From the IMG/VR virus record IMGVR_UViG_3300021061_000218, positions 1 through 54,421 of that record: DNA of 54,421 nucleotides. One strand, 5' to 3'. The translations under genes and the position numbers were made by a program. The notes under the pieces were generated by a model that saw nothing but the letters and a program-made list of their open reading frames with translations, was not told where the DNA came from and searched no databases. Positions 1 to 54,264 of this stretch are shown here, piece by piece (the stretch's first letter is position 1; each line of letters opens with the position of its first letter). Origin of the DNA: a virus. Its lineage: Duplodnaviria; Caudoviricetes.

Positions 1-408
1 GTCCCGGTGGATGCGGTACTGGCGTCTGAGCCGAAAGAAGGAGTCGCAACCCAGGATCTTCCGGTCACAAGCATCGGGAGCGATACGGCAATCTTCGACA
101 TCGGCTCCAACAGCGTGAAGCAGTACAAGGATGTCATCGCCAAGGCGGGCATGATCGTCTGGAACGGGCCTATCGGTTTCTACGAAGTCGAGGCGTTCGC
201 CGGAGCGACAAAGGAGCTCGCCACTGCCGTCGCAGCAGCCACTAAAAAGGGAGCCGTGTCCATTATCGGCGGAGGCGATACCTTGGATTTCCACGTCCGC
301 TACGGCTATCCCTTGGACGCCTACTCGTTTGTGAGTACCGGTGGCGGCGCGATGCTGGAGTTCATCGCCGGCAAAACGCTCCCGGCACTTGTGCCGCTTC
401 GGGCCTGA
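1..408 (+). CDS. pgk: Phosphoglycerate kinase, C-terminal part (truncated by window start); host gene
   Basis: DIG, VWNGPIGFYE, IIGGGDT, VSTGGGAMLEF motifs; ends in TGA. Confidence 0.97.
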   Translation, partial: VPVDAVLASEPKEGVATQDLPVTSIGSDTAIFDIGSNSVKQYKDVIAKAGMIVWNGPIGFYEVEAFAGATKELATAVAAATKKGAVSIIGGGDTLDFHVRYGYPLDAYSFVSTGGGAMLEFIAGKTLPALVPLRA

Positions 409-441
409 CGGGAGCCTAAATTCCTAGTATTATTCCAGCCG

Positions 442-2019
442 ATGATGACCGTCCAACTCCAGGTCCTCTTTCGGAAGGAAGAGGAGTCATGGTCGGCGTT
501 CGCACGGCGTGCCGTTGACGCGCATGGTGACGTGCTGCTCGTGCTCGGCGCATCGGAGGATTCACTGCAGCGGGAGGAACAGCGTCGTGCATTCCTAGAA
601 GAGATCGGCGCACATCGCACGCGAATCCGCCTGGCCACGCACGATGAAAGTCTCGCGGCGGCCGCCCGAAAGCATGGCGTGCGCGTTATCGAGAACACAC
701 GGGCTTTGCGGACGGCGCTCGCCGGACATGCGTCCATGAAGGAAGCTCTTCGGCTGTTCTCGCCGCAACTCTGGAGACAGGAATGGCGGTCGCGTCTGCA
801 GTCCATGGGCCTGCTTTCCCTTCCGAAACTGCGCATCTGGACGCTGATTCTGATGAGCGTCGGTCTCTTCCTGTTCGTGCTGTTCAAGCTGCTGCCGTCC
901 GCGGAAATCCGGATCTGGCCGCGAGGTGAAACCGCCAGCCAAACCACTAATATCTTCCTCGTCCAGTCCGGCGCGACGGTGCCGTCCCGCGCCCGCAGCT
1001 TGCCGCTGACACCCATCGACGTGACCGTACGCAAGTCGATCACGTTCGATCAAATCAGCAAACAATTCATCGGCACCAACGCGCAGGTCTCCATGACCGT
1101 CGTCAACAAGACGGACGAGGAAGTGTCACTGAAGGAGGGGACTCGCTTCGTGAACCAGGCAGGGATGGTGTTCAAGATCACGAAGAGGGCGACCGTGCCG
1201 CCGCAGGGGAAGATGGCCGTCCCTTCCAAAGCCGAGGATGAAGACATGTTCAACGAAATCATCGGAGAGCGCGGAAATGTTCCTGCCGGTTTGAAGTGGA
1301 CGATTCCGGCGCTCGATGCCGAGCTCCAGAAGGTTATCTACGGCGAGAACCGGGTGGCCGCCACGGGAGGTAGAACCGCCTATCGCACGGTATTGCAGCA
1401 GGGCGATCTCGACTTGGCTCGCAAGCGCCTGGAGCAGGAGCTGCTGGCGGAGGCGAGGAGTTTGGTGCAGGAAGAGCTCATCCAGATGAATCAGCGCGAT
1501 CCCACGCGGCAGCTCCGCCTGCTCTCCTACGACCAATTGGTGAAGCCGACCTACAGTGGTTTCGTGTTGCCGACGCATCAGTTGAATCAGCCCGTAAGTT
1601 CCATTTCCGCGCAGGGAACGCTGATCTACCGTGTCCTGGCGTACGACGCCCAATCCATACTGGACATCGTCGGCACCGATCTGATGGCGCACGTATCCGA
1701 CGGTAAGAAGATCATCGAGGACACGGTGAACGTCGATCACATTGAGCTGCGTGTGTTCGATTACGCCGATGATCTCTCCTGGATCAAGTCCACGGTAGAA
1801 CTGACGGCCACGGAACAGTACATCTTGGATCCGTTGACGCCGCCGGGAGCCAAATTCGCGAAGAAAATCCGCGACGCCGTGACAGGGGAGTCGAAGCAGG
1901 ACGCCCTGCGGATCGTGAAGAACCTGCCCGAAGTGGAGAAAGCCGAAATCAGCCTCTGGCCGCCCTGGGGAAACACGTTGCCCGACATTCCTTCGCATAT
2001 TTCCATCTCCATCGAGTGA
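442..2019 (+). CDS. Host single-TM hypothetical protein with baseplate-J-like middle region (type I recall as common in CPR genomes)
   Basis: 525 aa ORF with host-like codon usage; TM at ~130-150; GTRF, GERGNVPAG, TGG and C-terminal ISLWPPW..LP motifs. Confidence 0.65.
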   Translation: MMTVQLQVLFRKEEESWSAFARRAVDAHGDVLLVLGASEDSLQREEQRRAFLEEIGAHRTRIRLATHDESLAAAARKHGVRVIENTRALRTALAGHASMKEALRLFSPQLWRQEWRSRLQSMGLLSLPKLRIWTLILMSVGLFLFVLFKLLPSAEIRIWPRGETASQTTNIFLVQSGATVPSRARSLPLTPIDVTVRKSITFDQISKQFIGTNAQVSMTVVNKTDEEVSLKEGTRFVNQAGMVFKITKRATVPPQGKMAVPSKAEDEDMFNEIIGERGNVPAGLKWTIPALDAELQKVIYGENRVAATGGRTAYRTVLQQGDLDLARKRLEQELLAEARSLVQEELIQMNQRDPTRQLRLLSYDQLVKPTYSGFVLPTHQLNQPVSSISAQGTLIYRVLAYDAQSILDIVGTDLMAHVSDGKKIIEDTVNVDHIELRVFDYADDLSWIKSTVELTATEQYILDPLTPPGAKFAKKIRDAVTGESKQDALRIVKNLPEVEKAEISLWPPWGNTLPDIPSHISISIE

Positions 2020-2669
2020 TGCCGAGCATCGGTCGACTTTGGCGTTTCTTCTGGATGACAGTCCTGGGCTTGGTTGCACTCGCCGCGCTCACCTTCGGCG
2101 CAGTCCTCCTCTTCGTCGTGTCGCAGTTCGACGGTTCCGCCGATTTCCCTGCGGACTGCGGCGTGGTCTTCGGAGCCGCGGTCTGGCCCTCGGCCAAGGA
2201 CGCCAGCGGCGCGGTGGTCTTATCCCAGCCGGGGCCGGGGATTACCAGAAGGGTGCAGACGGCCGTGGATCTCTACAAGAACGGTCAATTGCGGCGCATT
2301 TTCGTCACCGGCGGCAGGGGAGACGGCATGCCGGAAAGTGAGGCGCAGGTGATGCGCCGTTTCGCGGTGCAACAAGGCGTGAAGCCGTCGGATGTGATGA
2401 TGGAGACGAATTCACACTCCACGGAGGAGAATATCGCCCTGACCCAAAACTTGACTTCCGACTGCTCCGATATCGTGGCGATCAGTGATCGCTATCATCT
2501 GGCTCGGATCTCCTACATTGCCTGGGTGGACGGTTGGCCTGTTGCCACGCATCCGGCCTCACGCGTGGCGACGAGACGCTTCGAAGTCTACAGCGTGGTG
2601 CGCGAGGCACTGGGAATCCTGCATTTCACGTTCGAGCGGATTACCGGCATCCGAATTCTCGAACCCTAA
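2016..2669 (+). CDS. YdcF/SanA (DUF218) family protein; host gene
   Basis: N-terminal TM, VVFGA, FVTGG, SEAQVM, SHSTEEN, SDRYHLAR, VRE motifs. Confidence 0.92.
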   Translation: MMPSIGRLWRFFWMTVLGLVALAALTFGAVLLFVVSQFDGSADFPADCGVVFGAAVWPSAKDASGAVVLSQPGPGITRRVQTAVDLYKNGQLRRIFVTGGRGDGMPESEAQVMRRFAVQQGVKPSDVMMETNSHSTEENIALTQNLTSDCSDIVAISDRYHLARISYIAWVDGWPVATHPASRVATRRFEVYSVVREALGILHFTFERITGIRILEP

Positions 2670-3139
2670 GAGTGTCGATCGGATTCGACAGCCCCTTGGA
2701 AGAGTTTTCCACAGGACGGTGGATACCGAGCTCGTTTCGAAGGGCGTTTATGTTAAGTATTAGGAGCTGCTCCCCGACCGGATTTCAGTATTCTTACTGT
2801 ATAGGCCGTTTCTCTAAGGTATTTTGGCACTTCTTCTATAAATGCCCTATAACGCGAGATCGTCTCTCGGACGACTCCGACTAGCCTGCCCCACGGACTT
2901 TTATGGGGTTCGCTCTAACTTTTTCCTCAGAGCGGGGAAGTCGGGGATGGGAGATGAAGAGGTGGGAAACCGAATGCATCTCGGTAGAAAACTCTCGAGT
3001 GGTGATCCGATGAGTGTTGATCATATGAATGATTATTCGTGCGTACGAATGAGGAGATATGTACGAGAGGAAACGGCAAAAGCAGCTCGGCTGTAGAGAG
3101 ACCATCCTGTTGACTGAAATGCCCTTGCATTTGAAATAA

Positions 3140-3167
3140 TGTTAACATAAAATGCATTATGTAAACC
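3140..3167 (+). other. dif-like recombination site (attL)
   Basis: TGTTAACATAA-AATGCA-TTATGTAAACC: 11-6-11 layout with inverted XerD-type arms; identity with the window-end copy begins exactly at the 6-bp core. Confidence 0.85.
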
Positions 3168-3277
3168 AAGCCCTAGACAGATCCCAACATTCCATAAGCC
3201 CGTCCCCCTCCTGCGACTCCCCCATCTTCCTAACCGTTGGGAGGGGCCGGCTACTTCATTCCACGTTGAGGCGTGGA
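3151..3277 (+). repeat. 127-bp direct repeat, copy 1
   Basis: Identical to 54295-54421. Confidence 0.97.
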
Positions 3278-3342
3278 TACTGCGCACTTCAGGGTAACCC
3301 CGCAGGACGACCCCTCCCACCACAATATGTCTTCTCCAAAAC

Positions 3343-4353
3343 ATGTTGACTCCCCTGTCCACCCCGAGGATCATTCTGAGTTCTATGATTATACCATCAA
3401 ATCCTCTCATGCAAGCTATCGAGAGATACCTGCAGTTCCTGAAGGCGGAGCAGAATAGATCCCCGCTCACGGTCCTGAGCTATGCCGATTCCCTCACGTT
3501 CGTCTGCAAGCACATTGGGGTCTCCTCCCCGCTGGAGATCAGCAAAGAGGTCGTGCGGAACTTCAAGGGGGAGCTGCATGAGTTTAAGAAGAGAACCGGT
3601 GGGCGGCTGTCTACTCGGACGAAGAACCACCACTTAACCGTCCTCCGTGCCTTCCTTCGCTACCTGATCCGGGAGGAGGGCGCCATTGTGTACTCGCCTG
3701 ACAATATCTCCTTGTTCCACGAGGAGGAGCGGCACGTGAAGTTCCTCTCGAAAGAGGAGATGCAGCGCCTCATCGAGGCCCCCAACAGGATGACAAGAGA
3801 GGGAATGCGGGACGCAGCCATGCTCAACCTCTTCTTCTCAACAGGACTCCGCCTCCAGGAGCTTCGCCTCCTCAATAGGGATGACGTGAACCTCGAGAGC
3901 TGTGAGATGAGCATTCGGGGCAAGAGAGGGAAGGTGCGGGTGGTCTTCCTCTCCCCATCCTGTGCGGAGGCGTTACGGGACTACCTTTCGGTGCGGATCG
4001 ACCAGCTCCCCGCCCTCTTCATTCGCAGGCTCGGGTCTGCTGCGTGGAATCCTGTTAAAGGGGAGGATTACCGCCTCTCCCGGCAGTGGATCAATCAGAT
4101 GGTGAAGAAGTACGCCCGTCAGGCGGGCATCACCTGCTCCCCCTCGCCCCATACGCTGCGCCACTCCTTTGCCACCGACCTTTTGAGTAACGGGGCGGAC
4201 CTGCGTAGCGTGCAGGAGATGCTGGGGCATGCGGATCTCTCGACAACCCAGATCTATACCCATGTGACGAACCCGCAGCTCAGAGAGACGCATAAGAAGT
4301 TCCATTACGACCCCCATCTCCCGAAGGTCACCCTGCCTTCTTCCGGGGCCTGA
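3343..4353 (+). CDS. XerC/XerD-like tyrosine recombinase (phage integrase); true start may be ATG 3385 or 3409
   Basis: RD..L.LFFSTGLR..EL, GKRGKVR, SPHTLRHSFATDLL.NGADLRSVQEMLGH...TTQIYTHV. Confidence 0.95.
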   Translation: MLTPLSTPRIILSSMIIPSNPLMQAIERYLQFLKAEQNRSPLTVLSYADSLTFVCKHIGVSSPLEISKEVVRNFKGELHEFKKRTGGRLSTRTKNHHLTVLRAFLRYLIREEGAIVYSPDNISLFHEEERHVKFLSKEEMQRLIEAPNRMTREGMRDAAMLNLFFSTGLRLQELRLLNRDDVNLESCEMSIRGKRGKVRVVFLSPSCAEALRDYLSVRIDQLPALFIRRLGSAAWNPVKGEDYRLSRQWINQMVKKYARQAGITCSPSPHTLRHSFATDLLSNGADLRSVQEMLGHADLSTTQIYTHVTNPQLRETHKKFHYDPHLPKVTLPSSGA

Positions 4354-4825
4354 ACTGGCGCAGTTGCGTTGCTCGTACCGTATACACCTCCCTGCCGTAT
4401 AAAAAGAGCGGGGACTTCAGCTCATCGAACTCCCCTCTCGAAATCCACCCCAGTACCTCCGCCTCTTCCTGGCTGGGGTCTAGTCTCATGAGGATGTAGC
4501 GCTTGGGAGATTTCCGCTCCCACTCCCTCTTTTTTACGATGAGGAGAGGGTTTCTGTCCTTGCACATCCTCGTTTTGATCTCCAGCGTGCCGAAGTCTCC
4601 CCTATCCCCTCCTGCATAGATTTCCTCGTTGATGGGCATCCCCGTGATCTTCGAGAAGGCCATCTCCCCGAGGAGCCCGATCATGTGGGGGTACCAGCGG
4701 TGGGGATTGTCGTGGTAGCCCGAATCGTTGAAGCGGATGTGCTTGGGCTTGGCTTGGACTCTCTTCTTTGCCAGTTTCTCAGCATGCTTACGGTCTTTGA
4801 GTGTGAGAAGAACGGTGTGAGACAT
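4328..4825 (-). CDS. Phage protein, possible PD-(D/E)XK nuclease fold
   Basis: GLLGEMAF...GD...EIKT pattern; ATG 4825 chosen as start. Confidence 0.55.
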   Translation of the reverse strand: MSHTVLLTLKDRKHAEKLAKKRVQAKPKHIRFNDSGYHDNPHRWYPHMIGLLGEMAFSKITGMPINEEIYAGGDRGDFGTLEIKTRMCKDRNPLLIVKKREWERKSPKRYILMRLDPSQEEAEVLGWISRGEFDELKSPLFLYGREVYTVRATQLRQFRPRKKAG

Positions 4826-4911
4826 CTCACAATCCGAAGGTAGCAGATTAGGCCACAAACTTCAATTTCCCTCTATGGACGCAGCGGGGAAAAAGATGTA
4901 TATACGAAATC

Positions 4912-5115
4912 ATGGATCGCAACTACGAAGACATGCTCGAAGCAGCTGAAATCATTCATGATCACCCGTTCGTTCCCGAGAAGCCTCGCATCGCTCAGGA
5001 GGCGGCCTTTGAGGCGGATGAGGCCTTCGCACGTAATGAGATCACTACCGAGCAGCTCATCCGTCTCTACGCCCTTCTGGGAGTCTCCCCTTCTGCCCCT
5101 TCCCAAGCGCACTGA
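4912..5115 (+). CDS. Hypothetical protein
   Basis: 67 aa ATG ORF with phage-like codon usage. Confidence 0.55.
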   Translation: MDRNYEDMLEAAEIIHDHPFVPEKPRIAQEAAFEADEAFARNEITTEQLIRLYALLGVSPSAPSQAH

Positions 5116-5219
5116 TGAGTAACTACAAAACACCCCGCAAGTCGGCCAGACGACGTCTCGCCCCGACAAAGAGGGCGCTGACAGGCCGAAAGGTTGGTCG
5201 AGGGGCGAAGAGGCGCTGA

Positions 5220-5635: not shown

Positions 5636-6082
5636 TTAGGAATAATAATAAACAATGTAAGGCTCCACGTTCGTGAGCACCCATCGCCCCTTCTTCAGCA
5701 CCCAGTACTCCCAGTGGAGATGGACGTTTGTGGAGAAGCCTGTCGTGCCCATCACCCCCACGGGATCCCCCATGTGGACGAACTGCCCGCTCTTCACCCC
5801 TACCTTCTCAAGGTGGGCGTAGATGCTCTTTCGCTTCTCCCCTTCTACGGTGTAGGGCTGAGAGATGATGCTGATGTAGTTGCCCAGATCCTTATCCTTC
5901 CCCACCTTCACATACCCCTCGTGGGCAGCCTTGAGCACAATCCCCTTCTCTCCCGGAGCCTTGGGGGCGATATCGAGAGCGCCATGTATACCGCTCGCCG
6001 TATAGCTCACAGGGGTGTGAAACCGCTGCATGATCCGGAAGTCCTTTCCGTCCTTGCCGGCGAGAGGATTGATGACGCTCAT
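5636..6082 (-). CDS. M23 family peptidase, putative endolysin
   Basis: HGALD, GNYI, YAHL, MGTTGFST..HLHWE. Confidence 0.92.
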   Translation of the reverse strand: MSVINPLAGKDGKDFRIMQRFHTPVSYTASGIHGALDIAPKAPGEKGIVLKAAHEGYVKVGKDKDLGNYISIISQPYTVEGEKRKSIYAHLEKVGVKSGQFVHMGDPVGVMGTTGFSTNVHLHWEYWVLKKGRWVLTNVEPYIVYYYS

Positions 6083-13982: not shown

Positions 13983-16586
13983 TTACTTTTTGGCGAATGT
14001 CTTCTTCGTGAACTCCTTCTCCGGATCGATGAGCTTTCCATCCTTCCTCACTTCGTAGTGAACATGGCTCCCGTCTCCGCCGGAGCCTGAGAGGACGTGG
14101 CCGCTGTTGCCTACGTCGGCGATTCTCTGCCGGGGGGAGATCTTATCCCCTTTCTTCACGTGAGTCTTATTGAGGTGGCCGTAGCGGTGCACATAGCCCT
14201 GCTCGTCCATGACATCGACGTAGAGGCCGTAGCCTTTCTTCCCCTGGTCTACGATGTCAACGACCGCCCCCCCTCTGAATGCTGGCACCGGATCCCCGAT
14301 CTTCCCGTCGTAATCGATACCTCCGTGTGTCCCGCTCTTCATGTAGTTCACGGGAGTGTCGAAGCGCTGAGTGATGGCGGAGTATTCGTTAGCGTATTCA
14401 TCGGGGCCGCCGTAGTCCCCCATCTGCTCATTGAAGATGCTGTCGAAATCGTTCTCGAAGTCATTGTCGTCCTCAACGTCGAATTTTGTTGATTGGTCTC
14501 CAAATCCCAGGCCGCTCATTTTCTTGTAATTCCCCTTCCCGAGGATTTTGTCATACCGCCTCTCAAGTGCACGGGTAGAGAAGCCACGGAGACTATTAAT
14601 CTTCACAAGCATTTCCTCGGCGTTATCTACTTTGGTATCAATAAGGAATGTATTTGCTCTCTCTAGCTCGCCCTCAGTGAGGTTTGCACCATAGAGCTGA
14701 TGGATAAGCTGGGCCTGATAAGCCTGGATGTCGCCGATGAGACTCAGGAACTCTTTATCACGAGTAACATTTGAAACCGGCTTGGCGCTTTCTTTTGCCG
14801 CTTTCCACACACCTCCGAATTTCTTATCGAGAGTGGCGAGTTGGCCCTGTACGAAGCCTGTCTCTGTGATTGTGTCTTCCAGCATATCGAATTGGCCCTT
14901 CTTCCCCTCGCCAAGACTTTCGTAAGCGTTGATGAGAACACTGTCCTTGAACTCATCAATCCTCCCCTGTGCGAGCAGAGCTTCGCCCTGAGCGATGGCT
15001 GACCGGCGTCTCTTGTCATCACCCTGGCCACGGACTGCATTCGAGAGGATGAGACCGTAGTCTGTTCCGTCCTTGGAGTCTCGGTACTTGCCAATGAGAG
15101 CGAAGGCGGCGTTATCAGCGATGGCCTTCTCCTCCTCCTTCATCTGGTTGATGGTCATGAGGTCATCCGGCAGCGGGTCGAGACCGAGATCCGATCGCCT
15201 GCGGTTGATGCTGGCGAGCCAGTTCTTGTTCGTGTGCAAGCCCTGCGTAATGCCGAACTCGACGTCTTGATTGAGATCGGAGATGCGGTCTCGCTGCTCC
15301 CCTCTCGCAAGGCGGGCCTGCTCGACAACCCACTTCGTGTTCTCCTCTGCGGCTTCGGCCCTGGCCTTGGCCAGCTCGCCAAGAGCGTCTGCCGTCTTCT
15401 CCATGAGATCTTTCTGGGCCGTGATCATCTCCTTCCCGGTGTCGAGGATCGTCCCATCCGTCTTCTCTGCTGCTTCAATGAGCTTGTCGAAGAGGATATT
15501 GGACTCCGTCATGTAGGCATCGTGTGCAGCTACCTGATTGGCGTGGTAGGTGTTTTCGATGTCCATTAACTTCTCGTCCCAGACTCGACCTGCGTAGACC
15601 TTGTCCACACGCATGTCCATGATCGTGTCTTCCCCCTTCTTGAGGGCGAAGTACACATTGCCGACCTTGCTGGACGCTCTCCAGCCGCCGGAGATCCCAA
15701 GGCCCAAGAGCAGGTCCTTCCTGTCTTTAGACTGCTGCATCTCCGCATCACGGATCGCCCTCTGCATCTCCATCTGTTCAGCCTCCTTGCTGGCAGCGGC
15801 GAGGTTGCGGTTTCGTTCATACGTATTCTTCGCCTCCTGTAACTTGCGTTCCTCAATCTGCTTATTCACAGCGTCCCACCGAGCCTGCTGGGCCCGGAGG
15901 TCTGACTGCGTATTCTGCAGCATCGTCTTCATGTTCTCGCCGATCTGCGTGATGGCGGCGATGGTCTCTGTCTTCCCGTCCTGAAGGACGGCCTGTTGTT
16001 CTTTGATGTACTTGTCCCACGGAGCCATGAGGGCTTCGGCTTGAGCCTGCTGCTCTGCTGGAAGCCCCTTAATAACGGCATCAGTAGCCCCTGTGTCAGG
16101 AGTAGTAGACGGATCCGCAGTTGCGCCGGCCTCCTCTGGGGCAGCGGGATGGTCATGCTCATCCCCCTCTGCGCTCGCAACGAGGTTTGACGTATCAGTC
16201 GGCTCCTCTTCCTTCTCTGGGGCGGACGTCGGGGGCGGGATGGAGTTCGGGATGCTCGGCGCACTCGTCTCCCCTACCACCGCATTGCCGTGGATATCCG
16301 TCATGTTGGCGTCAGCCGGCGTCATGACAGGATCCCCTGCCATTGGGGTCGTGGGGCCTCCTGGCACCTTTGTGGGGTCCACGGAAGCAACGGGGGTTGT
16401 CCCCTTCTTTACTCGTGCGGCTCGGTTCTTCGAGATGACGCCTGCGGCGGGAGCCGTGGTCACCGGGAGCGTTGCTCCCGTGCCCGTGGATGGAGTGGCC
16501 CCCTTCTTCGTGAGGCGCTTCTTTGCAGCGGCCTCGATGGCTCCTCCTGCAGCCAGTCCCCCGGTCTTTTTAGCTTTGATAGGCAT
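13983..16586 (-). CDS. Putative internal virion protein with C-terminal M23 peptidase domain
   Basis: Long coiled coil; C-terminal HGGIDY, GYGLYV, YGHL, GNSG, HVHYEVR. Confidence 0.85.
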   Translation of the reverse strand: MPIKAKKTGGLAAGGAIEAAAKKRLTKKGATPSTGTGATLPVTTAPAAGVISKNRAARVKKGTTPVASVDPTKVPGGPTTPMAGDPVMTPADANMTDIHGNAVVGETSAPSIPNSIPPPTSAPEKEEEPTDTSNLVASAEGDEHDHPAAPEEAGATADPSTTPDTGATDAVIKGLPAEQQAQAEALMAPWDKYIKEQQAVLQDGKTETIAAITQIGENMKTMLQNTQSDLRAQQARWDAVNKQIEERKLQEAKNTYERNRNLAAASKEAEQMEMQRAIRDAEMQQSKDRKDLLLGLGISGGWRASSKVGNVYFALKKGEDTIMDMRVDKVYAGRVWDEKLMDIENTYHANQVAAHDAYMTESNILFDKLIEAAEKTDGTILDTGKEMITAQKDLMEKTADALGELAKARAEAAEENTKWVVEQARLARGEQRDRISDLNQDVEFGITQGLHTNKNWLASINRRRSDLGLDPLPDDLMTINQMKEEEKAIADNAAFALIGKYRDSKDGTDYGLILSNAVRGQGDDKRRRSAIAQGEALLAQGRIDEFKDSVLINAYESLGEGKKGQFDMLEDTITETGFVQGQLATLDKKFGGVWKAAKESAKPVSNVTRDKEFLSLIGDIQAYQAQLIHQLYGANLTEGELERANTFLIDTKVDNAEEMLVKINSLRGFSTRALERRYDKILGKGNYKKMSGLGFGDQSTKFDVEDDNDFENDFDSIFNEQMGDYGGPDEYANEYSAITQRFDTPVNYMKSGTHGGIDYDGKIGDPVPAFRGGAVVDIVDQGKKGYGLYVDVMDEQGYVHRYGHLNKTHVKKGDKISPRQRIADVGNSGHVLSGSGGDGSHVHYEVRKDGKLIDPEKEFTKKTFAKK

Positions 16587-25460: not shown

Positions 25461-25813
25461 ATCTTGGCGGGGATGGTCGGCTGCGCATCTGCGTCTTTGA
25501 CCTGCTTCCACATGGAGGCGAAGTCATGCGTGATTTCCGACACCATTTCGACACCTCCGGCGCACACCGTAGCCTCCGTCGTCTTCCCCACGATCGTAAA
25601 GCCGTGGGCCTTGTCTCGCTTGCGATCCGCCTTCCACAGAAGGTACTTCTCTAGCAGACGGAACTCCGGCTGGGAGATCAGGTGGCAGATCGCCTTCATT
25701 TCATCGAGCTTGGGTTCCTTGAAGCCGGCAGTCGTGAACACGGGGTCCACAACGGCGCCCTGCTTTGCGGGACCGAAGAGTCCTCTAATCCACTCGATGA
25801 ACTTTTGCATCAC
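25457..25813 (-). CDS. Hypothetical protein following the portal
   Basis: Coupled to the portal stop codon. Confidence 0.7.
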   Translation of the reverse strand: MMQKFIEWIRGLFGPAKQGAVVDPVFTTAGFKEPKLDEMKAICHLISQPEFRLLEKYLLWKADRKRDKAHGFTIVGKTTEATVCAGGVEMVSEITHDFASMWKQVKDADAQPTIPAKI

Positions 25814-27873
25814 TGAAGTTGGTTAAGCATGGAAAGCTGGTCAGTTCCACTCATAGGCGGCTGTGCTGGACCCTGCGGCATCCCCTCTTCTTGGGGCATG
25901 GCCTGGGGCTCAGGTGACTTAAACGTCTGTTGGAACTTCTTTTTCAGCTCTTCCATGGCACTCGTGGCGGACCTCCCCTCGTCTCTCTGCTCGCTCACGA
26001 TGACCTTCTTCACGGGCAAATCATTGACCTCGGCCAGCTCCTTCGAGAGGGCTTCCAGGTCCCAGACCAGCTTCCCGCTAGCAACCCCCGTCTCCGGATT
26101 CACCTGGAGAGAGGAGCCGTTCACGGTGATGGCGGTGTTCAGCAATTCGCTGAGCGTCAGCTTCTTGGCCTCCTTCGAGGATCCCATGGCGCTCGGGCGC
26201 ACGGCACGGACATCCAGTCTCGATTTCGTGCGGATGTACTCCGGGCGGGCGAGGATGTAGCTGTTGCCCGAGGGGTCCAGTCGCAGGGAGAAAGACTTTT
26301 TGCTCTTGTCCTCCTCTTCGATGATCTTCATGCCGTCCATCGGGATCTTCCTCTTTTCGAGCTTCGCAATCGGATTCTTGTCTTTGTCACGGACAATCTC
26401 ATCTTCCTCAAGGTCCGAGATGTCTTCCTCAGCCATCAGCCTCCTTATCTTGGGGGCCGGGAAGTACTGCATGATGTCTTGGATCAAGAGGTTGCCGAGA
26501 CGCACGATGAAGTTCGCCTCATTCTCTCGGAGGTTGGCGTTCACTCTTGCGAGCATTCCCTCTTTCTTCAGGGCCTCGATGCCCACCCGTTCCGACTGCT
26601 CACCGAAGAGCTGCTGGTAGTTGATGCCCGTCACCCAGATCAGAAGCTCCTCGATCTTGTCTTTCAACTTGTAGCTCTCGCCGGGCACGGAGCCCAGCTG
26701 CATCAGTTCGATGTTGTCTTTGGCCCCGTCTAAAACGACGCCCGGATAGGAAGCGATGGATCTGGGGTCGACGACCGAGTCGTCGGAGGTCGCAAGGATC
26801 GGGAAGGCGAGTTTCGTGGCCCGCACCTCCGCCTGCATGATGGCGTTGTAGGCGGCCTCAAGCGATTCGATGAGCTTGGGGATCCCCTTGCTGTAGAACG
26901 TGTGAGGACGCCGGTGCATGTGGAGCACGGCGAAAGGCAGTTCCTTGTGGTCGTCTAAGAGGCAGGTCGGGCGGATCAAGACGTTGTTCGCCATTACAAC
27001 GTATTCGTCTCGGTACTTATTCCAGTACTCGAGAACCACCACTCGCTTCGTCTCATCGGGGATGAGCGAGAGCGGGGACGTCAGCATGTGCTTGTCATCC
27101 AGGCGGTAAGCGCAGCCAGGCTGCACGTACTCGATATTCTGGTATCGCTTGTCGTGCTGGACCATCTGCTTGAACTGAGCCCAGCTCATCTCCGTCTCCA
27201 GCATGCAGTCTTCCGCTTCGTCGATGTCTTTCGCCGCATCATCGATTAAAAACCTCTTCGGGTTATCGATAATCTCGATCTTGATGTCGTCCCAGGGGTA
27301 GTCGATCACTTCCTCCGTCTTAATCGTGATCCCATCATCCCCCTTCACGGGCTTGCGCTGCTTGATGATGCGAGTCTCCCGGCAGAAGTAGATGCGCACG
27401 GGGACGTGGCCGTAGACTCTCCTGAGTCGCAGCGCCTGCTGCTTCACCTTGTCCCAATTCGTGCGGGAGAGGGCGTACTTCTTGGCCGCATCGATCAGCG
27501 GCAGCTTCTGTTTGTCGGTGGCTTCCTGGGTATCGACAGCGATATCCGGGAAGGCATCGAGCTCTTCGGCTACAGCCGTATCAATGATCGTGTGGGACCA
27601 CGGAATACGGAAACGCTCCTTGGTGTTGGTCGGGTCCTCGGGGATCTCCGCCTCGAGGATAGTGATGGCGTCATCCCATTCCTGGTGGTAGTGCTGCTGG
27701 GCAACCACAAGATCTTGGTGTCGACGAAGGAGGCGCTCCACGATGGAGCGCTCCTCGTCTGTAGGCTGCCAGACCTTCGGAACCTCGTTCTGCTTCTCTT
27801 CTAAATTCGGAACCTTGTTCTTGTCAGTATACGTGACTTTGTTTTCGGGGTTCAGGGCAGCAGCCTTGGGCAT
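25810..27873 (-). CDS. Portal protein
   Basis: ~687 aa; VLEYW, ELPF, FYSKGIP; directly downstream of TerL; ATG 27873 after an A/C-rich leader. Confidence 0.85.
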   Translation of the reverse strand: MPKAAALNPENKVTYTDKNKVPNLEEKQNEVPKVWQPTDEERSIVERLLRRHQDLVVAQQHYHQEWDDAITILEAEIPEDPTNTKERFRIPWSHTIIDTAVAEELDAFPDIAVDTQEATDKQKLPLIDAAKKYALSRTNWDKVKQQALRLRRVYGHVPVRIYFCRETRIIKQRKPVKGDDGITIKTEEVIDYPWDDIKIEIIDNPKRFLIDDAAKDIDEAEDCMLETEMSWAQFKQMVQHDKRYQNIEYVQPGCAYRLDDKHMLTSPLSLIPDETKRVVVLEYWNKYRDEYVVMANNVLIRPTCLLDDHKELPFAVLHMHRRPHTFYSKGIPKLIESLEAAYNAIMQAEVRATKLAFPILATSDDSVVDPRSIASYPGVVLDGAKDNIELMQLGSVPGESYKLKDKIEELLIWVTGINYQQLFGEQSERVGIEALKKEGMLARVNANLRENEANFIVRLGNLLIQDIMQYFPAPKIRRLMAEEDISDLEEDEIVRDKDKNPIAKLEKRKIPMDGMKIIEEEDKSKKSFSLRLDPSGNSYILARPEYIRTKSRLDVRAVRPSAMGSSKEAKKLTLSELLNTAITVNGSSLQVNPETGVASGKLVWDLEALSKELAEVNDLPVKKVIVSEQRDEGRSATSAMEELKKKFQQTFKSPEPQAMPQEEGMPQGPAQPPMSGTDQLSMLNQLQ

Positions 27874-28001
27874 ACAGGTGTTGTTGTTTGTGTTTGTGTT
27901 CTTCCCACCCTCAGTGAGAGGCAAAGGCCTGGACGGGCCTAACGCCAATTTCTGAACGTAACAGATGACGATTCTGTCGTCTATGGTTTGGCACTATGAT
28001 T

Positions 28002-30506
28002 TTAGAGGCCCCAGCCGGCTCCCAGGATCTTCGAATGTCTGTCTGCCGGACGTCCCAAAAATCCATAACGATCCCGCAGTGACGCCGCTCTCTTCTTGGA
28101 CTTGCCGCCGCCTTGGGTCTGCAGGATGGCGTAGACCAGGGCGTCACAGTTGTGAGTTAACACACCATTGGCAAAGTACTCGGGCGCCCCCTCAACCGCT
28201 AGGGAGTAAACGGGAGATCTTCTTTCCTCTTCTCGCAAGCCCACCACAAACACGGGAGCAGTATCTTGTCTTTCTGAAGCGGCTTCTGGCGAAAGTCTTC
28301 TTGCAATGCTCGCAAGTACGGACTTCGTCATCTTTACCGCTTTGTCTACGGTCTTTTGCGCAGCAGGCTCGGGAGCAAAATTTTGCCCGGGGAAAGAAGG
28401 CAGTGAATTCTTCTTTGCATACGGAGCACTTGGCCCTAGCCCCCTTTCTTCCCTCCCAGCACTGTCGGCCATGTTCCCTGTGCCACCTTTTTCCTGCTTC
28501 TGTTCGGTGCCAGAGGCCTGCTGCAGGCCTGATGGATTCCAAGTGTCGGAGCATTCTTTCTGACGTTCCCCGGTGGCGCCTCCGGTGCTCGGCAGATGTA
28601 ATGCACTCCAGATTTGAGAGATCATTGTTGAGGGGGTTTTCATCTGAATGGTGGATGTGATAACCCTTGGGGATCGGTCCATTTTCTTTTTCCCAAATGT
28701 ATCGATGTAGGTAGAGAACAGGCCCTTTATTCTCTTTGTGAATCTGGAAATACCTCCGGTGATTGAGACGAGGACTGTCCGGGTAGCGGCGGAAGCGCAT
28801 CCCATCCAGTTCGAAGATTTCAATTTTTTGTTTTTGCATGTGAACATTATATCTCCATAAACGAGTGAATCAAGACGGGTAAATCCCGCTCCCTCTACCC
28901 AAACAGGGTGGTTGGGGGTCCCTGTAAGGGAGGTTCCATCCGAAAGACTTGCTGTGATTACGTGTGCAGAGGGATTCGTCATTCCTGCGGCGACAACCCT
29001 TCTCAGGCCCCTCCGGGTCGATACCAACTCGCCAGGCAGAATATCCTCGATAGTCTTTGGCCCCTTGGAAGTTTCTACCATCGTTCCAGGAACTAGGCAC
29101 ATATCATCGTGCTTCCCTCGTGGGAACGACAGGATCTCGTGCATGAAATCCCCCAGGTAGGGCGCTCCCTCCCGGAGGATCACTCTGCCGGCCTGGACGT
29201 ACCCTGACGCAGCCTGGGCCCTCTGCAGCTTCGACTTTCCAATCTCTGTGAGCGGGTCTAGCGGCATCACGGGCAGGGCGCTCTCTTTCCGAAGCGCCTG
29301 CAAAACGGATGTCCCGGATACCCTGTCCTCAATCATCACCCGGGAGATCGGGAAGTGATTGCTCCAGTGCTCGTGCAGGTTGTACATCTTCTGCTTCAAG
29401 TCAGGGAAGTTCAGGTGAGCACGATAGACGTCTGCAATGAAGAGGCCGTCTTTGGTGACGTAGGCTGTCACGCACGCCGAGTAGTCACTCTCCTCCTTCT
29501 CGGTTAAGGCCGTGTCCCAGATCTGGATCCCCCTCGTAATCTCGTCTGGGTGCGGGAGCCTGCCATATCTGAACCAACCCTCCTGAAAGACATCCCCTTC
29601 GGCAGAGGTGGGACGCTGCTGATAGAGAGCGTTCCACTGCCTTGGGGTTAAGACCGACTTCGTGTCGTTCAAGGCAACAGCATCGAATCTCTCCGGCCAG
29701 AGCGGCTCCCCCACGGGGCGCTTTAAGGGGTCATTGTCTTCAGCGAAGGCCGGGAGGTTGATGACCGTCCAGTTACCCGGGTTCTGCTCGAGGATACGGC
29801 CGACGAGATCGTCTTCATGCCAGCGGGTGCACATCACAATGACCGCTGCGCCTTTGTGTAATCGTGTGTAGGCCACGGAGGTGTAGAAGTCCCAGACCTT
29901 GTCCCGCATCACCTCCGAGTCGGCTTCTTCGCTGTTTTTGATGGGGTCATCGATGATCAGGAGGTCGGCTCCCCTACCCGTGAGTGCTCCTCCGACACCA
30001 ACAGCTGTCAACCCCCCTCTCCTCCCTCCGATGTCCCAGCTCTGGAGCTTTCTTCGCTCTGGGTCGACAGAAACTGCGGCTCCGTCCTCCGTCAAAGCAC
30101 GGAGAGAGGTCTTGCCGAAGATCACTTGGAACTCGGGCCCCTCGATGACACTTCTCACCTGCCTCGAGAAGTCTTCTGCGAGTTCTGCTCCGTACGAAAC
30201 CTGAACAACTTTTTTGTCCGGGTTACGCCCGAGGAACCACGCCGGGAAGCGGATGGAGACTTTCTCACTCTTCCCATGTCTCGGCGGGAGCGTGACGATC
30301 AGCCTCCCAATCCCCTCCTTGCCCTCCGTTGCTACATATCTCTCTACCTGTTCCAATTTCTCATTCAAGAGATCCTGGTGCCGGGCATTCTGATAGCCCG
30401 GGAAGGTGAACGTGGTGAAATCCCGCAGGTGACGTCTTGCGAGCTCTCTCCTGGCTAAGATCGAGCGGATCTCGTCAGGCGTTGGGAGTTTCTCTTGTGT
30501 GGGTAT
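28002..30506 (-). CDS. terL: Terminase large subunit with intein; probable ATA start at 30506
   Basis: PPRHGKS Walker A, LIIDDP Walker B, TRWHEDD, YQQRP, WDTA..DYS, FP.GKHDD/DA; frame open upstream to a TAA at 30519-30521. Confidence 0.95.
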   Translation of the reverse strand: MPTQEKLPTPDEIRSILARRELARRHLRDFTTFTFPGYQNARHQDLLNEKLEQVERYVATEGKEGIGRLIVTLPPRHGKSEKVSIRFPAWFLGRNPDKKVVQVSYGAELAEDFSRQVRSVIEGPEFQVIFGKTSLRALTEDGAAVSVDPERRKLQSWDIGGRRGGLTAVGVGGALTGRGADLLIIDDPIKNSEEADSEVMRDKVWDFYTSVAYTRLHKGAAVIVMCTRWHEDDLVGRILEQNPGNWTVINLPAFAEDNDPLKRPVGEPLWPERFDAVALNDTKSVLTPRQWNALYQQRPTSAEGDVFQEGWFRYGRLPHPDEITRGIQIWDTALTEKEESDYSACVTAYVTKDGLFIADVYRAHLNFPDLKQKMYNLHEHWSNHFPISRVMIEDRVSGTSVLQALRKESALPVMPLDPLTEIGKSKLQRAQAASGYVQAGRVILREGAPYLGDFMHEILSFPRGKHDDMCLVPGTMVETSKGPKTIEDILPGELVSTRRGLRRVVAAGMTNPSAHVITASLSDGTSLTGTPNHPVWVEGAGFTRLDSLVYGDIMFTCKNKKLKSSNWMGCASAATRTVLVSITGGISRFTKRIKGLFSTYIDTFGKKKMDRSPRVITSTIQMKTPSTMISQIWSALHLPSTGGATGERQKECSDTWNPSGLQQASGTEQKQEKGGTGNMADSAGREERGLGPSAPYAKKNSLPSFPGQNFAPEPAAQKTVDKAVKMTKSVLASIARRLSPEAASERQDTAPVFVVGLREEERRSPVYSLAVEGAPEYFANGVLTHNCDALVYAILQTQGGGKSKKRAASLRDRYGFLGRPADRHSKILGAGWGL
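28192..28839 (-). CDS. HNH homing endonuclease nested out of frame inside the intein
   Basis: LHRYIWE..NGPIPKGYHIHHSDENPLNN..SNL plus two CxxC...CSxxC zinc modules. Confidence 0.9.
   Translation of the reverse strand: MQKQKIEIFELDGMRFRRYPDSPRLNHRRYFQIHKENKGPVLYLHRYIWEKENGPIPKGYHIHHSDENPLNNDLSNLECITSAEHRRRHRGTSERMLRHLESIRPAAGLWHRTEAGKRWHREHGRQCWEGRKGARAKCSVCKEEFTAFFPRAKFCSRACCAKDRRQSGKDDEVRTCEHCKKTFARSRFRKTRYCSRVCGGLARRGKKISRLLPSG
28846..28873 (-). promoter_or_regulatory. Sigma70-type promoter for the nested HNH gene (leaderless)
   Basis: TTGATT-16-TATAAT, then 6 nt, then ATG 28839. Confidence 0.65.
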
Positions 30507-36939: not shown

Positions 36940-37236
36940 ATGCTAAAAAAGATTGCGCCGCTCTTTGCGGTGTTGTTTGTTTTCGCTCTCTTCATCATCA
37001 TCGGAGGCCGCACATTCGCCACAAGCGAACTGGAGGCGGCTAAGCAGCGCTACATCGAATCTGTTCGTGGCAGCTGCATCACTATCGCAAATCGCACGCT
37101 CGACTGCTACGAAGGAGACAAGAGCGAGTGCGAGAAGCTGAAAGACTCCCAGAACTGGTTCATGTCTGAATTCGGGAAGTCTCCCGACTTCGTGTGTCAG
37201 GACCCCGGGGCGTATTTTTTAGTCTTCGGGGCCTGA
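36940..37236 (+). CDS. Membrane-anchored/secreted Cys-containing protein; probable N-terminal part of a frameshift fusion
   Basis: Signal-like N-terminus; ends just after T TTT TTA. Confidence 0.75.
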   Translation: MLKKIAPLFAVLFVFALFIIIGGRTFATSELEAAKQRYIESVRGSCITIANRTLDCYEGDKSECEKLKDSQNWFMSEFGKSPDFVCQDPGAYFLVFGA

Positions 37237-38135
37237 TCAAACCCCTGACAACAATCGTCGTGCACCACACGGCGGTAGAGAGGGAGGACCAGCGAGCAGT
37301 CATAGAAGGAGCTCACCTTGGGCGTGGTTACGCCGAGGGGTGCACAGGCTCCCATATCGCCTATCACTTCTCTATCAACAGTAAAGGAAAGATTGATCAG
37401 AACCGTTGCCCCCAGGAGCGCAGCATCCACACCCGCTGTGGCCTGGGGATGGAGCAATGTCTGGGAGATGAAAAGGACATCAATAACGAGTCCCTCGCTA
37501 TCGTCCTTGAAGGCGACTTCACCAATCACCTCCCGCCCCCTGAGCAGCTCACGGCGCTTCAGAACCTCATCGCCTTCATTAAGGCGCAGTACCCCTCCGT
37601 TACGCACGTCATCCCCCACAGAGAAGCCAGCGCAACTGCGTGCCCGGGAAAGAAACTCTCTGACTGGCTTGGGGCGAAGTATCCCCAGCCGAAGCCAGAG
37701 CCGCCGCTACACAAGGCAGCCCCTCTCCCAGACGATGTCTGGAGGATCACCCGCTACTATTCCCCGATCGTAGGCCAACCTCGCTACTACATGGGCAAGA
37801 CCTACTTAGAGGATGTACGGATGAACTGTGGGCTTAATAAAGATGGGACCGCAGGCGACTGCTATCACACAGCTGATGGAAGCGATGTCCGCAATTACGC
37901 ACCGCTCACGTTGGCAGCATGCCCCCCTTCAATCCCGCATGGCACCAAGCTCAAGATTGAGATGTACGGCATCGTGGAGTGCCACGACAGGGGCGGGGCC
38001 ATCAAAGAGAAGCGTATTGACCTCTGGGCAGGACTTGGCATGGACGGCCTCGCCGTCCTCGCAGATAAGAAGTACGCCTGCCCTGGCGGTGCTACGAAAG
38101 ACGGCTGTCCTCTGAAAGTAGAAATCATGAAGTAA
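37194..38135 (+). CDS. N-acetylmuramoyl-L-alanine amidase (Amidase_2) plus 3D domain cell-wall hydrolase
   Basis: IVVHHTA, AYHF.I, HREA..TACPG; then ITRYY, A.P..IPHGT, HDRGGAIK.KRIDLW. Confidence 0.9.
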   Translation: MSGPRGVFFSLRGLIKPLTTIVVHHTAVEREDQRAVIEGAHLGRGYAEGCTGSHIAYHFSINSKGKIDQNRCPQERSIHTRCGLGMEQCLGDEKDINNESLAIVLEGDFTNHLPPPEQLTALQNLIAFIKAQYPSVTHVIPHREASATACPGKKLSDWLGAKYPQPKPEPPLHKAAPLPDDVWRITRYYSPIVGQPRYYMGKTYLEDVRMNCGLNKDGTAGDCYHTADGSDVRNYAPLTLAACPPSIPHGTKLKIEMYGIVECHDRGGAIKEKRIDLWAGLGMDGLAVLADKKYACPGGATKDGCPLKVEIMK

Positions 38136-42173: not shown

Positions 42174-44012
42174 TTATTTGCCTGTTTGTAGTGCGTGCGC
42201 CACGTTCGCAGCGTCATCGCTAGACCCCTCAAGTCGGAAGGACGAATGCTTCCAGTCGTAGATCATGTTCAATCTCACACGACGCTGGAGCGTCTTGCTC
42301 TTGCGAACATCGACGATGCAGTGCGGGTCGTAGGTGCCAAGAGACTTGTTTCGGCTGATCAGGATCGACACGTCTGCGGACTGGTTCAGCGGCCCCCCGC
42401 CCTCGAACGGGATATAGCCCTGCTGTTCGTGCAGGTCGGTTAAGCCTTCTTTGCCGAGCTGACACACGTCGATGATGGCAACGTCATGCCGCTGGGCGAG
42501 TGACTGCAGGTTCTTGCCGTACTCTCTGGCCCAGTTGTAAACCTCGGGCTTCATGTCGATCATCTGGCTGTAGTCCAGCATGATGAAGTCCACGCCCCCG
42601 TCGGTCTTCGCCTTCGCAATCAGGTCTTCCATCTGGCGCAGGGAGTTGCTGGTGTGACGCACGTCGAAAATCTTCAGGCCAGAATAGATTTGCAGCGATG
42701 CCTCTGACGGGCTTCGCTTCTGCTCCAGGATGTCCATGTACTTGCAGCCAAGCTGGATCGAGATCAGGTGGGCCAGGACTTCGGTGGTGTCCACTTCGGT
42801 CGAGAAGATAATGCCCCGGTAGCCACTGCGAAGCAGCTGGTCTGCTAGGAAGTAGCCGAACTTGGATTTGCCGGTGCCGAAGAGCGCCCCGATGCGGGTG
42901 ACTTTCTTGCGAGCCAAAAGCCGGAACGGGGTGAGCTCCGGATTGATGTGCAGACAGTTCGGCGGGGAGGACTGGAGTTCCTTCAGGATCTCCTCGATGC
43001 CGTACGAGGTGTTTTCGGCCCCAGGCTTCTTGTCGATTCTGACCTGCGGGTAGTGGTCCTTGAACCAGAAGAACGTGTCTCGGGTGGAGAGGCCTTTCAC
43101 CGCCTTCACGAACTCGAACGGCGCAAAGCCGTTCGCAGTCTTCGGGATGTGGTCAGAGCCGCCGTGCATGACGATATTTCGTTCTGGAATTATGTAAGTG
43201 GCCTTGTGCTTGCCGCCGGAGGGGTCCCGGAAATTCTTGCCATTCGGCATTAGCTCCCAGCCCATTACCCGGCAGACAATCTCGCTTATCGGCAGCTTTT
43301 GGATAGCATTGTAAGTATCATTGCGAACTTTGTCTTCGGGTGGCGAAGATTGAGCCGCAGTCTCACGCCTCTCAGTGATACGTCTCTCCCCCGTCGCAAC
43401 CATCTCCGAAAGACTTATTTTCGTATCCTGGAACTTTAGGATCCTAACTTGCGATGGGGGGTTGTGCTTTCGGTTGAAGGATCCCGGCAGCCGTCCGATA
43501 CGGGCAACGTTCACACACGAATTATCAAGCTTCTCATCGGTAAGCAGCTCCGCCTGTTCGATGAGCACCCGGAGGCCTTCTTTCCAGGCATTTTTGTCTG
43601 AAATCTCTATGGCTTGTTTGCCAAAGTAGTAAACATGAATGCCGTTCCCGGAGAAAATTATATATCTCCATTTCGCCAAGACCGCATCTGCGCTGAGGAG
43701 CTCAGGGAGCGTGTTCTCGCCCCAGTAGACAATGTCCTCGTCTTCAAGATATGGCGAGCCTTTGCGGATATCGAAGTCGAAGTAGAAATAGTTCTTGAGC
43801 TTGATATCGTCATCCTCGGCCCTCTCGTTCCTAATGCCCGGGGAGTCTTTAACCCCCGCCATAAAGAACAAGTTGCTTCTTGGATTTGCCTCCACGAACT
43901 TCTCGAGCTCCTGAGGAGACCAGCTTTTTATACAAGCATCGACCCTGTTCAGTGGGCCTGCCTGGATGACGCAACCGGGAAGTGAAATGTCTGTCAGAAA
44001 CTTCTGCAGCAT
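42174..44012 (-). CDS. Primase-helicase fusion (AEP/RepB-like primase plus DnaB-like SF4 helicase)
   Basis: YFDFD, SGNGIH.Y, RLPGSFN.K; Walker A GALFGTGKS, MLDYSQ, CQL, QSAD. Confidence 0.88.
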   Translation of the reverse strand: MLQKFLTDISLPGCVIQAGPLNRVDACIKSWSPQELEKFVEANPRSNLFFMAGVKDSPGIRNERAEDDDIKLKNYFYFDFDIRKGSPYLEDEDIVYWGENTLPELLSADAVLAKWRYIIFSGNGIHVYYFGKQAIEISDKNAWKEGLRVLIEQAELLTDEKLDNSCVNVARIGRLPGSFNRKHNPPSQVRILKFQDTKISLSEMVATGERRITERRETAAQSSPPEDKVRNDTYNAIQKLPISEIVCRVMGWELMPNGKNFRDPSGGKHKATYIIPERNIVMHGGSDHIPKTANGFAPFEFVKAVKGLSTRDTFFWFKDHYPQVRIDKKPGAENTSYGIEEILKELQSSPPNCLHINPELTPFRLLARKKVTRIGALFGTGKSKFGYFLADQLLRSGYRGIIFSTEVDTTEVLAHLISIQLGCKYMDILEQKRSPSEASLQIYSGLKIFDVRHTSNSLRQMEDLIAKAKTDGGVDFIMLDYSQMIDMKPEVYNWAREYGKNLQSLAQRHDVAIIDVCQLGKEGLTDLHEQQGYIPFEGGGPLNQSADVSILISRNKSLGTYDPHCIVDVRKSKTLQRRVRLNMIYDWKHSSFRLEGSSDDAANVAHALQTGK

Positions 44013-53786: not shown

Positions 53787-53789
53787 TAT

Positions 53790-53817
53790 TTGACAAGGAG
53801 GAGAGTGACGCTATTCT
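53790..53817 (+). promoter_or_regulatory. Promoter
   Basis: TTGACA-16-TATTCT. Confidence 0.55.
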
Positions 53818-53836
53818 GCCGCCCTTTTTTTGATTC

Positions 53837-54226: not shown

Positions 54227-54264
54227 AAGGCATTCGCAGCAGAGACGGCGGGAACTACACGGGG

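Follow-up and report, generated by a model that had tools for sequence, protein, structure and literature searches.

Elements that integrate into dif, the chromosome dimer-resolution site, are known to depend on the recombinases of their hosts. The integrative mobile elements that exploit Xer (IMEXs)—CTXphi, VGJphi, TLCphi, the gonococcal genetic island and EludIMEX-1—have no recombinase of their own and hijack host XerC/XerD (PMC5357621), and double jelly-roll PM2-like Vibrio prophages are inserted in dif by host XerC/D, with a 17-bp one-armed dif-like attP (PMC12715192). Xer-like phage integrases have been reported at tRNA sites (PMC10011098), and Le Bourgeois et al. (2007) proposed that the position of difSL next to xerS might prevent insertions (PMC1914069). 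All cited papers are used here in excerpt, and what we say of them holds for those excerpts. We analysed a window of 54,421 bases, which is the entire virus record IMGVR_UViG_3300021061_000218 (Duplodnaviria; Caudoviricetes). An earlier note on this DNA had stated the reliance of known dif-integrating elements on host XerCD, in agreement with two of these papers (PMC5357621, PMC12715192), and had proposed a tailed prophage integrated at a dif-like site by its own Xer-type recombinase. We consider it moderately probable that the best explanation of the whole is a temperate phage in its host's dif, with the phage-borne Xer, encoded by the xer gene at 3343–4353, as its putative integrase.

The host/phage boundary described in the earlier note is an 11-6-11 site, TGTTAACATAA-AATGCA-TTATGTAAACC, and direct inspection of the letters places it at 3140–3167. 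The 17-mer composed of core and right arm has two copies in the window, at 3151 and 54295; 100 shuffles give an expectation of 0.04 matches, and two copies were seen in none of them (0/100). The two copies are identical from 3151 = 54295 on, i.e., from the first base of the core, exactly as the note had it, and the bases preceding them are unrelated. The second copy forms the final 127 bases of the record (54295–54421), is identical in all columns to 3151–3277 and runs off the record end. Since it lies at the end of the record, which has no host DNA on this side, it is the junction of the phage right end with the left end. The note was thus correct in placing a second copy at the phage end, but this copy is attP rather than attR, and it derives from a circular, concatemeric or tandem form of the phage. 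A length of 127 is an assembler word length. The left arm of attP resembles a good arm in 4 of 11 positions (counted by eye), and its right arm differs from the host right arm in a single letter across the first 10 bases. As a dif mimic, attP has the core AATGCA and six more bases in common with the host site. At attL both arms are good, as anticipated earlier, and the left one agrees with the consensus of relatives.

We aligned contigs of two public sequencing runs, X1 and X2, to positions 53222–54421 of the window (depths are given as X1/X2). A phage contig of 51,156 bp runs from 3151 to 54306 at a depth of 100.1/39.8 and includes xer, and a 48-bp contig (54277–54324; depth 55.3/31.3) bridges attP. 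The attL contig (5,581/2,710 bp; depth 20/9.3) carries the host-left letters before 3151 and ends at 3180. The attR contig (10,229/3,739 bp; depth 21.6/8.3) starts in the phage right end and matches the phage to 54310 with one differing letter, after which the letters are unlike those of the phage. Contigs for attL and attP branch before 3151, and those for attP and attR branch after 54306 (equivalent to 3162); a 12-bp stretch, AATGCATTATGT, is therefore common to attP and the host site. The unlike letters of attR are a T followed by a reading frame, MVSLSASTPL (translated by eye), which is identical to residues 1–10 of database protein P0011, so that the host's own xer starts immediately behind the right arm of attR. 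The attR junction that the earlier note had asked for is thus present in both runs, and since the attL and attR contigs are at host depth, the integration is real.

In both runs the phage is present at approximately five times the depth of the host and the attP junction at approximately three times. As the phage depth exceeds that of the host, free or replicating phage DNA was present at sampling. The unbranched attL contig suggests that the empty host site is rare, although contigs cannot show absence. A further run, X3, yielded a single 232-bp piece at a depth of 2.7 and is uninformative. The 127-bp wrap-around, together with the 51,156-bp contig, shows that the record consists of one complete phage unit plus 3,150 host bases; its public classification is linear, with an estimated completeness of 49%.

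Bases 1–3150 are host DNA. With the 525-aa protein encoded in this flank, we found 31 syntenic reference-genome loci, nearly all of them titled Candidatus Peribacteria or Peregrinibacteria. The 525-aa protein is as similar to its relatives (median identity 49.1%) as these are to one another (median 47.6%), and a DUF218 gene between the 525-aa gene and the site is matched in 27 of the 31 loci. Judged by synteny and protein identity, the host is a Peribacterales bacterium of the candidate phyla radiation (CPR), which bears out the earlier guess of a CPR host. The best DNA match to the host flank among 401 genomes of the class is 66%. Two of the syntenic loci carry other titles (L011, Kiritimatiellales; L017, Patescibacteria group), and their Xers fall together inside the Peribacterales clade, so that the Kiritimatiellales label of L011 looks like a binning or naming error.

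The order PGK, 525-aa gene, (DUF218), palindromic site and xer is found in all 28 relative loci that reach far enough; in the other three of the 31, the contigs end before the site. The core is AATGCA in 25 of the 28, inverted in one and altered by a single substitution in two. The arms are palindromic in 8–11 of 11 positions and belong to two types, TTAACATAA/TTATGTTAA and TCAAGATAA/TTATCTTGA, which co-vary on both sides of the site. The arm ends ATAA-N6-TTAT, which are common to dif sites, are present in the host site. In all 28 loci the site lies upstream of xer, 25–166 bp from the aligned Xer start. In the locus with the inverted core (L008, of genome G236; site at 11977 of the locus), the core, inverted relative to the flanking genes, reads TGCATT, and no DUF218 gene separates the 525-aa gene from the site.

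The central 14-mer of the site occurs in 120 of 200 genomes of the order, as a single copy in 119 of these, while a reversed control pattern occurs in one of the 200. We rejected the second copy in G236 as a chance match within a 1260-aa open reading frame (ORF), without arms. Xer matches (E ≤ 1e-30) were found in 192 of the 200 genomes, exactly one in 189; the second matches in the other three are gene fragments on contigs of 1.5–1.9 kb and were likewise set aside. Over the same residues, host Xers are at least as close to the phage Xer as these fragments, and no phage genes adjoin the fragments. The host module thus has one Xer per genome and a site directly upstream of its gene, in the manner of XerS/difSL or XerH/difH. 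By these features the Peribacterales possess a putative one-recombinase dif-xer module that is undescribed. Beyond what the earlier note saw, the host system has one recombinase and no XerC/XerD pair.

Since dif would be expected at the replication terminus in the proposed reading, the earlier note had suggested a check against GC skew, which we ran on 200–280 kb around the site in four relatives (G207, G324, G153 and G188). The distance between the site and the cumulative G-C maximum is 492 bp in G207. In G324 (a contig of 1,248,026 bp) the distance is 2,038 bp, and mean skew changes from +0.051 on the left to -0.045 on the right. For G153 (a contig of 1.24 Mb), in which the site is at 709,966, coarse sampling gives a skew that is positive between approximately 300 and 680 kb and negative from 700 kb onward; at fine resolution the profile is noisy, with the site at a local maximum. 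The site therefore sits at the switch from plus to minus in G207 and G324, whereas the profiles of G153 and G188 are noisy. With its conserved place (28/28), its single-copy 14-mer (119/120) and the skew switch in two relatives, the target is dif-like, as the earlier note had supposed.

We also observed that dnaA is merely 97–126 kb from the dif-like site in all four genomes (contig C1 of each). In G207 the skew passes dnaA without switching, and dnaA is therefore far from the skew-defined origin and near the terminus. For complete Peribacteria genomes, origin and terminus were located by skew and were not apparent from gene predictions (PMC4736985); the words 'Xer' and 'recombinase' are absent from that paper as excerpted (PMC4736985).

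The product of the xer gene at 3343–4353 is also deposited as database protein P0001, which starts at 3409 and has 314 aa. It contains the XerC/D-type motif HTLRHSFATDLLSNGADLRSVQEMLGH to which the earlier note had pointed. The enzyme is composed of two domains, a SAM-like N-terminal domain and a catalytic domain (Pfam matches to residues 26–111 and 133–309 of 336). Positions 1–287 of the 290 of the XerD model align to residues 27–321, so that an arm-binding domain is absent, again as had been noted. NCBIfam scores are 228.3 bits for XerD (cut-off 329.6), 222.7 for XerC (335.15), 194 for XerA (220) and 114.1 for XerS (267); all are below the equivalog cut-offs, and the protein is thus Xer-like without being an equivalog. 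Matches in the PDB are XerA and XerD (E approximately 1e-32) and XerH (5jjv; E 1.4e-14). In the alignment with XerA (4a8e), the stretches GLR..EL, HTLRHSFAT, LGH and TQIYTHV are all conserved, and we take the catalytic residues (R in box I, HxxR, H/W and Y) to lie within them. It is the sole tyrosine recombinase in the record, and no serine recombinase was found in the record.

The phage gene occupies the exact place where a host xer is expected, and the host keeps its own single xer beside dif. The phage Xer is 54.7–60.3% identical to the 28 host Xers, whereas pairs of host Xers are 61.0–91.7% identical (median 70.5); among their respective relatives, the flanking 525-aa and DUF218 proteins are typical. 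P0011, in contrast, is a typical host Xer, with 85% identity to the Xer of relative L026 and 61% to that of the window. The only close match of the phage Xer in the protein database is P0001 (100%), which occurs on two contigs, the longer of 1,174,142 bases, and the longest contig listed for P0011 has the same length; the other matches are at most 63% identical and of the Peribacteria type. Among 50,697 deposited phage records, the best match has 34.7% identity. The xer gene at 3343–4353 belongs to the phage, not the host.

In a tree the phage Xer falls into a clade with 31 Peribacterales Xers as against 17 Xers of other orders (Shimodaira–Hasegawa-like approximate likelihood ratio test (SH-aLRT) support, 100), and within it the phage Xer is sister to all 31 host Xers (support 91, not starred). 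Its branch has a length of 0.99 compared with a median of 0.24; the tree comes from a quick method, with a program warning that long branches meet in it. The phage Xer thus appears to have arisen within the Xer clade of the host lineage, which fits capture, and the earlier suggestion of a captured Xer is consistent with this grouping.

Arm-like 10-mers with at most one mismatch occur nine times in the 54-kb window, six of them at attL or attP, and the two extra copies to the left of attP (Table 1) may be accessory binding sites. In 12 of the 28 relatives a third arm-like 9-mer, in direct orientation, is located upstream of the left arm at a fixed offset of -21, -14 or -25 (L001–L004, L007, L009, L011, L012, L017, L020, L026 and L031; 14–25 bp upstream of the site), and its sequence in L003 and L020 agrees with the variant arm type. 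This 9-mer may represent an accessory Xer-binding site of the relatives. Within 60 bp of the site, the host flank of the window has no third arm-like 9-mer.

A promoter-like match extends across attL, with its -35 element in host DNA and its -10 element in the core and right arm. In the relatives, a conserved -35 element at sigma-70 spacing from CATTAT was found no more often than at control offsets. The idea of a promoter is based on the 9/12 match of the window itself and on start codons close to the site. We rejected an RNA gene as the integration target, as the whole window is devoid of tRNA and tmRNA genes and of Rfam families.

Terminase large subunit and portal genes are present, as expected of a tailed phage (Caudoviricetes). 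Eight of the 20 large ORFs searched match any PHROG family, and none of the matches is a named capsid or tail protein. Near the phage ends we looked for a repressor, an excisionase and a Xer-activation factor: nine of the ten small ORFs have no Pfam match, and the tenth is an M23 peptidase; the ORFs at 4328–4858 and 4873–5169 likewise lack a Pfam match. Exact words of the junctions gave no match in viral contigs, which also contained no close relative of the phage Xer and a single relative of the terminase (34% identical). A metagenome scan with the phage Xer returned 11 loci, all merely 24–31% identical; the source of the record or its near kin may lie outside that scan. The features of the window are listed in Table 1.

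Table 1. Positions of host, phage and recombination-site features in the 54,421-base window
Feature	Position	Strand	Basis and remarks
Host phosphoglycerate kinase, C-terminus (3' part of gene)	1–408	+	Pfam PGK, E 3.1e-34; same order in 31/31 loci
Host conserved 525-aa protein, function unassigned	442–2019	+	46–59% identical to 31 Peribacteria/Peregrinibacteria loci
Host DUF218 (SanA/ElyC-like) protein	2016–2669	+	Pfam DUF218, E 7.4e-22; last host gene before site
Promoter-like match TTGAAA, 18 nt, CATTAT	3131–3160	+	Consensus scan, 9/12; weak evidence
attL, hybrid dif	3140–3167	+	Host left arm 3140–3150, central region AATGCA 3151–3156, phage right arm 3157–3167
12-bp stretch AATGCATTATGT common to attP and host site	3151–3162	+	Crossover must fall within; contig branch points
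Phage genome unit, 51,144 bp	3151–54294	.	Repeat spacing and single 51,156-bp contig
Xer-type tyrosine recombinase, phage-borne	3343–4353	+	336-aa ORF; Pfam Phage_integrase and SAM_1
148-aa M23 peptidase protein	5636–6082	-	Resembles host-encoded domain 4–7 kb upstream in loci of 25 relatives
867-aa protein, C-terminal M23 peptidase	13983–16586	-	As in tail-associated lysins
Portal protein, weak match	25810–27948	-	PHROG 1216, E 2e-9
Terminase large subunit	28002–30368	-	PHROG 38, E 7.7e-107, 359.8 bits
Endolysin (amidase and peptidase parts)	37194–38135	+	PHROG 822, E 1e-17; PHROG 1493
DnaB-like helicase/primase	42174–44012	-	PHROG 19, E 1.7e-14
RNA ligase homolog	45255–46196	+	PHROG 548, E 1.2e-41; adjoins exonuclease, replication region
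Arm-like 10-mer, 1 mismatch	54161–54170	-	125 bp left of attP core; script scan
Arm-like 10-mer, 1 mismatch	54266–54275	-	19 bp left of attP core; inverted relative to right arm
attP junction	54284–54311	+	Degenerate left arm AGCGGAAAGAT, core AATGCA, right arm TTATGTAAACC
Terminal 127-bp repeat of 3151–3277	54295–54421	+	Closes record; all columns identical

The following course of events would account for these observations. A temperate tailed phage with a unit of 51,144 bp is integrated into the probable dimer-resolution site of a Peribacterales chromosome, a near-palindrome with 11-bp arms and the 6-bp core AATGCA that is predicted to lie at the terminus, immediately upstream of a single XerD/XerA-like gene. 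On the phage, a half-mimic of this site, in which the core is unchanged but only one arm is good and the other degenerate, lies beside the gene for a divergent paralog of the host Xer. The crossover fell inside the 12 bases that the host site and attP have in common. Strand exchange by tyrosine recombinases occurs at the borders of the central region, which this 12-bp stretch contains, and a Xer-type exchange at the core edges is the probable mode here. Of the two products, attL is a complete two-armed site, plausibly a working dif, located 175–241 bp upstream of the phage xer, and attR is a one-armed site directly before the start codon of the host xer. The phage Xer would serve as the integrase, possibly together with the host Xer; we favour it because it is the only phage recombinase and its gene is beside attP, as in an integration module. 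The attL site would presumably still serve the host as dif.

Several points weigh against this account. The sites of G153 and G188 coincide with a local maximum only, the skew being noisy in these two of the four relatives, and the position of the terminus is taken from relatives with approximately 50–60% protein identity in the flanking genes rather than from the genome of the actual host. The record probably derives from runs X1 and X2, so that the junction contigs are a second assembly of the same reads and not independent, and the letter in which attR and attP differ is placed at 54307 from the contig branch position rather than read directly. Tail genes were not recognised among the 20 large ORFs searched against PHROG. 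No second phage of this kind turned up in viral contigs, metagenomes or genomes of the order, and the case represents a single lineage. In addition, the host Xer has 61% identity to the phage Xer, acts on an arm that is nearly the same and might perform all of the recombination.

We therefore weighed a reading in which the host Xer integrates and excises the phage at dif, and the phage Xer either replaces the host xer, which insertion cuts off from any promoter within or upstream of dif, so that dimers are still resolved in the lysogen, or resolves multimers of the circular phage genome at attP, much as Cre resolves multimers of the P1 genome. We regard it as a serious possibility, albeit an unlikely one. 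Besides the similarity of the two enzymes, attP has the exact core of the host and an arm that is one letter off in the first 10 bases; L002 and L004 show this arm variant as well, in their left arms. All described dif-integrating elements of the excerpts use the host enzyme (PMC5357621, PMC12715192). As the start codon follows directly after the right arm of attR, insertion must separate the host xer from its upstream signals, a vulnerability of the kind proposed for difSL-xerS by Le Bourgeois et al. (PMC1914069), and the promoter-like match spans attL; this promoter evidence, however, is just a 9/12 match to the consensus. On the other hand, it is not obvious why a phage for which the host enzyme suffices should retain a recombinase gene of 1 kb beside attP, the position of the only phage recombinase gene next to attP is the usual layout of an integration module, and the long branch of the phage Xer suggests divergence for a task of its own. 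It is improbable, in our view, that the conserved palindrome is instead an operator or a recombination site of the neighbouring gene, used as an ordinary attB and not for dimer resolution. The function of the site in dimer resolution is a prediction, the skew is noisy in two of four genomes, and the distance of 97–126 kb to dnaA in four genomes is at first sight unlike a terminus. Yet dnaA is not at the skew origin of G207, where no switch accompanies it, and for complete Peribacteria genomes origin and terminus were likewise located by skew without being apparent from gene predictions (PMC4736985). In G207 and G324 the skew maximum is 0.5 and 2 kb away from the site, its 14-mer is single in 119 of the 120 genomes that hold it, its arm ends are those common to dif sites and it lies beside the only Xer-family gene of the genome, as in XerS/difSL.

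Finally, the xer gene at 3343–4353 could be the host gene, joined to the phage in an assembly chimera through a common repeat; the gene is exactly where all 28 relatives have xer, and the 127-bp end repeat of the record is typical of an unresolved assembly graph. This is highly improbable, and we rejected it on the contig depths and the separate attL and attR contigs of X1 and X2. The gene resides inside a single contig of phage depth, five times that of the host in both runs, while attL and attR are found at host depth, and attR leads into a different, typical host xer. In addition, any two host Xers resemble each other more closely than any of them resembles the Xer of the window, whereas the flanking genes are typical.

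A further reading can be considered, namely that the phage takes over an essential module of the host: the host xer would be cut from its upstream signals, and the phage xer would be placed behind the regenerated dif. We put this forward tentatively and think it rather doubtful. If true, dimer resolution of the lysogen would depend on the phage enzyme and loss of the prophage would be difficult, which amounts to a kind of addiction; a single protein would act as integrase, partner in excision and housekeeping resolvase; and the phage would be a live counter-example to the protection proposed for a dif placed next to xer.

The case differs from known ones in three respects. It concerns a large tailed phage with a diverged copy of the host dimer-resolution enzyme beside a half-dif, where known dif invaders (filamentous or tailless phages and islands) borrow XerC/XerD, and its host is a CPR bacterium with a dif/Xer system that is undescribed in the literature searched. 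Our literature search, outside of which most subscription journals lay, returned no tailed phage bringing a Xer paralog into dif, and nothing on dif/Xer in CPR bacteria. The third respect is that the start codon of the single xer directly adjoins the host site, so that insertion necessarily rewires this gene. The case is also relevant to the proposal of Le Bourgeois et al. (2007) that insertion is warded off by the linkage of dif to xer. A sharply defined pair of substrates and two related enzymes would permit one to examine how a Xer system with one recombinase is diverted from resolution towards integration, and the site would be a ready marker of the replication terminus in Peribacterales genomes.

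Compared with phage integrases outside dif, the phage Xer resembles the two-domain Xer-like enzymes that act at tRNA genes, which have their gene beside attP and consist of SAM-like and catalytic domains (PMC10011098). Those tRNA-targeting integrases are not close paralogs of a housekeeping Xer of the host, whereas this phage Xer is 55–63% identical to host Xers. PM2-like Vibrio phages are small, with genomes of approximately 10 kb. Their prophages are, like this phage, double-stranded DNA elements with a half-site attP of core and one arm, but they are tailless and have no integrase (PMC12715192).

On the host side, XerS/difSL of streptococci and lactococci and XerH/difH of Helicobacter and Campylobacter share with the Peribacterales system a single recombinase and a site immediately upstream of its gene, and their dif is at the terminus (PMC1914069, PMC5357621), where the Peribacterales site is predicted to lie. 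Our searches did not turn up a phage that brings a copy of either XerS or XerH into dif. The sites differ in that difSL is an asymmetric 31-bp sequence and the Peribacterales site a 28-bp near-palindrome. By its model scores the Peribacterales enzyme is XerD/XerA-like and neither XerS nor XerH, with 114 bits for XerS versus 228 for XerD and 194 for XerA. The closest parallel for the phage is provided by the IMEXs, which also integrate into dif through a dif-like attP and regenerate a usable dif at one junction (PMC5357621); TLCphi and the gonococcal genetic island even have one degenerate attP arm, as this phage does (PMC5357621). The phage thus has the dif integration and the dif-mimic attP of an IMEX. 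Unlike the IMEXs, however, it is a 51-kb tailed phage with a Xer paralog of its own, and its host relies on a one-recombinase system.

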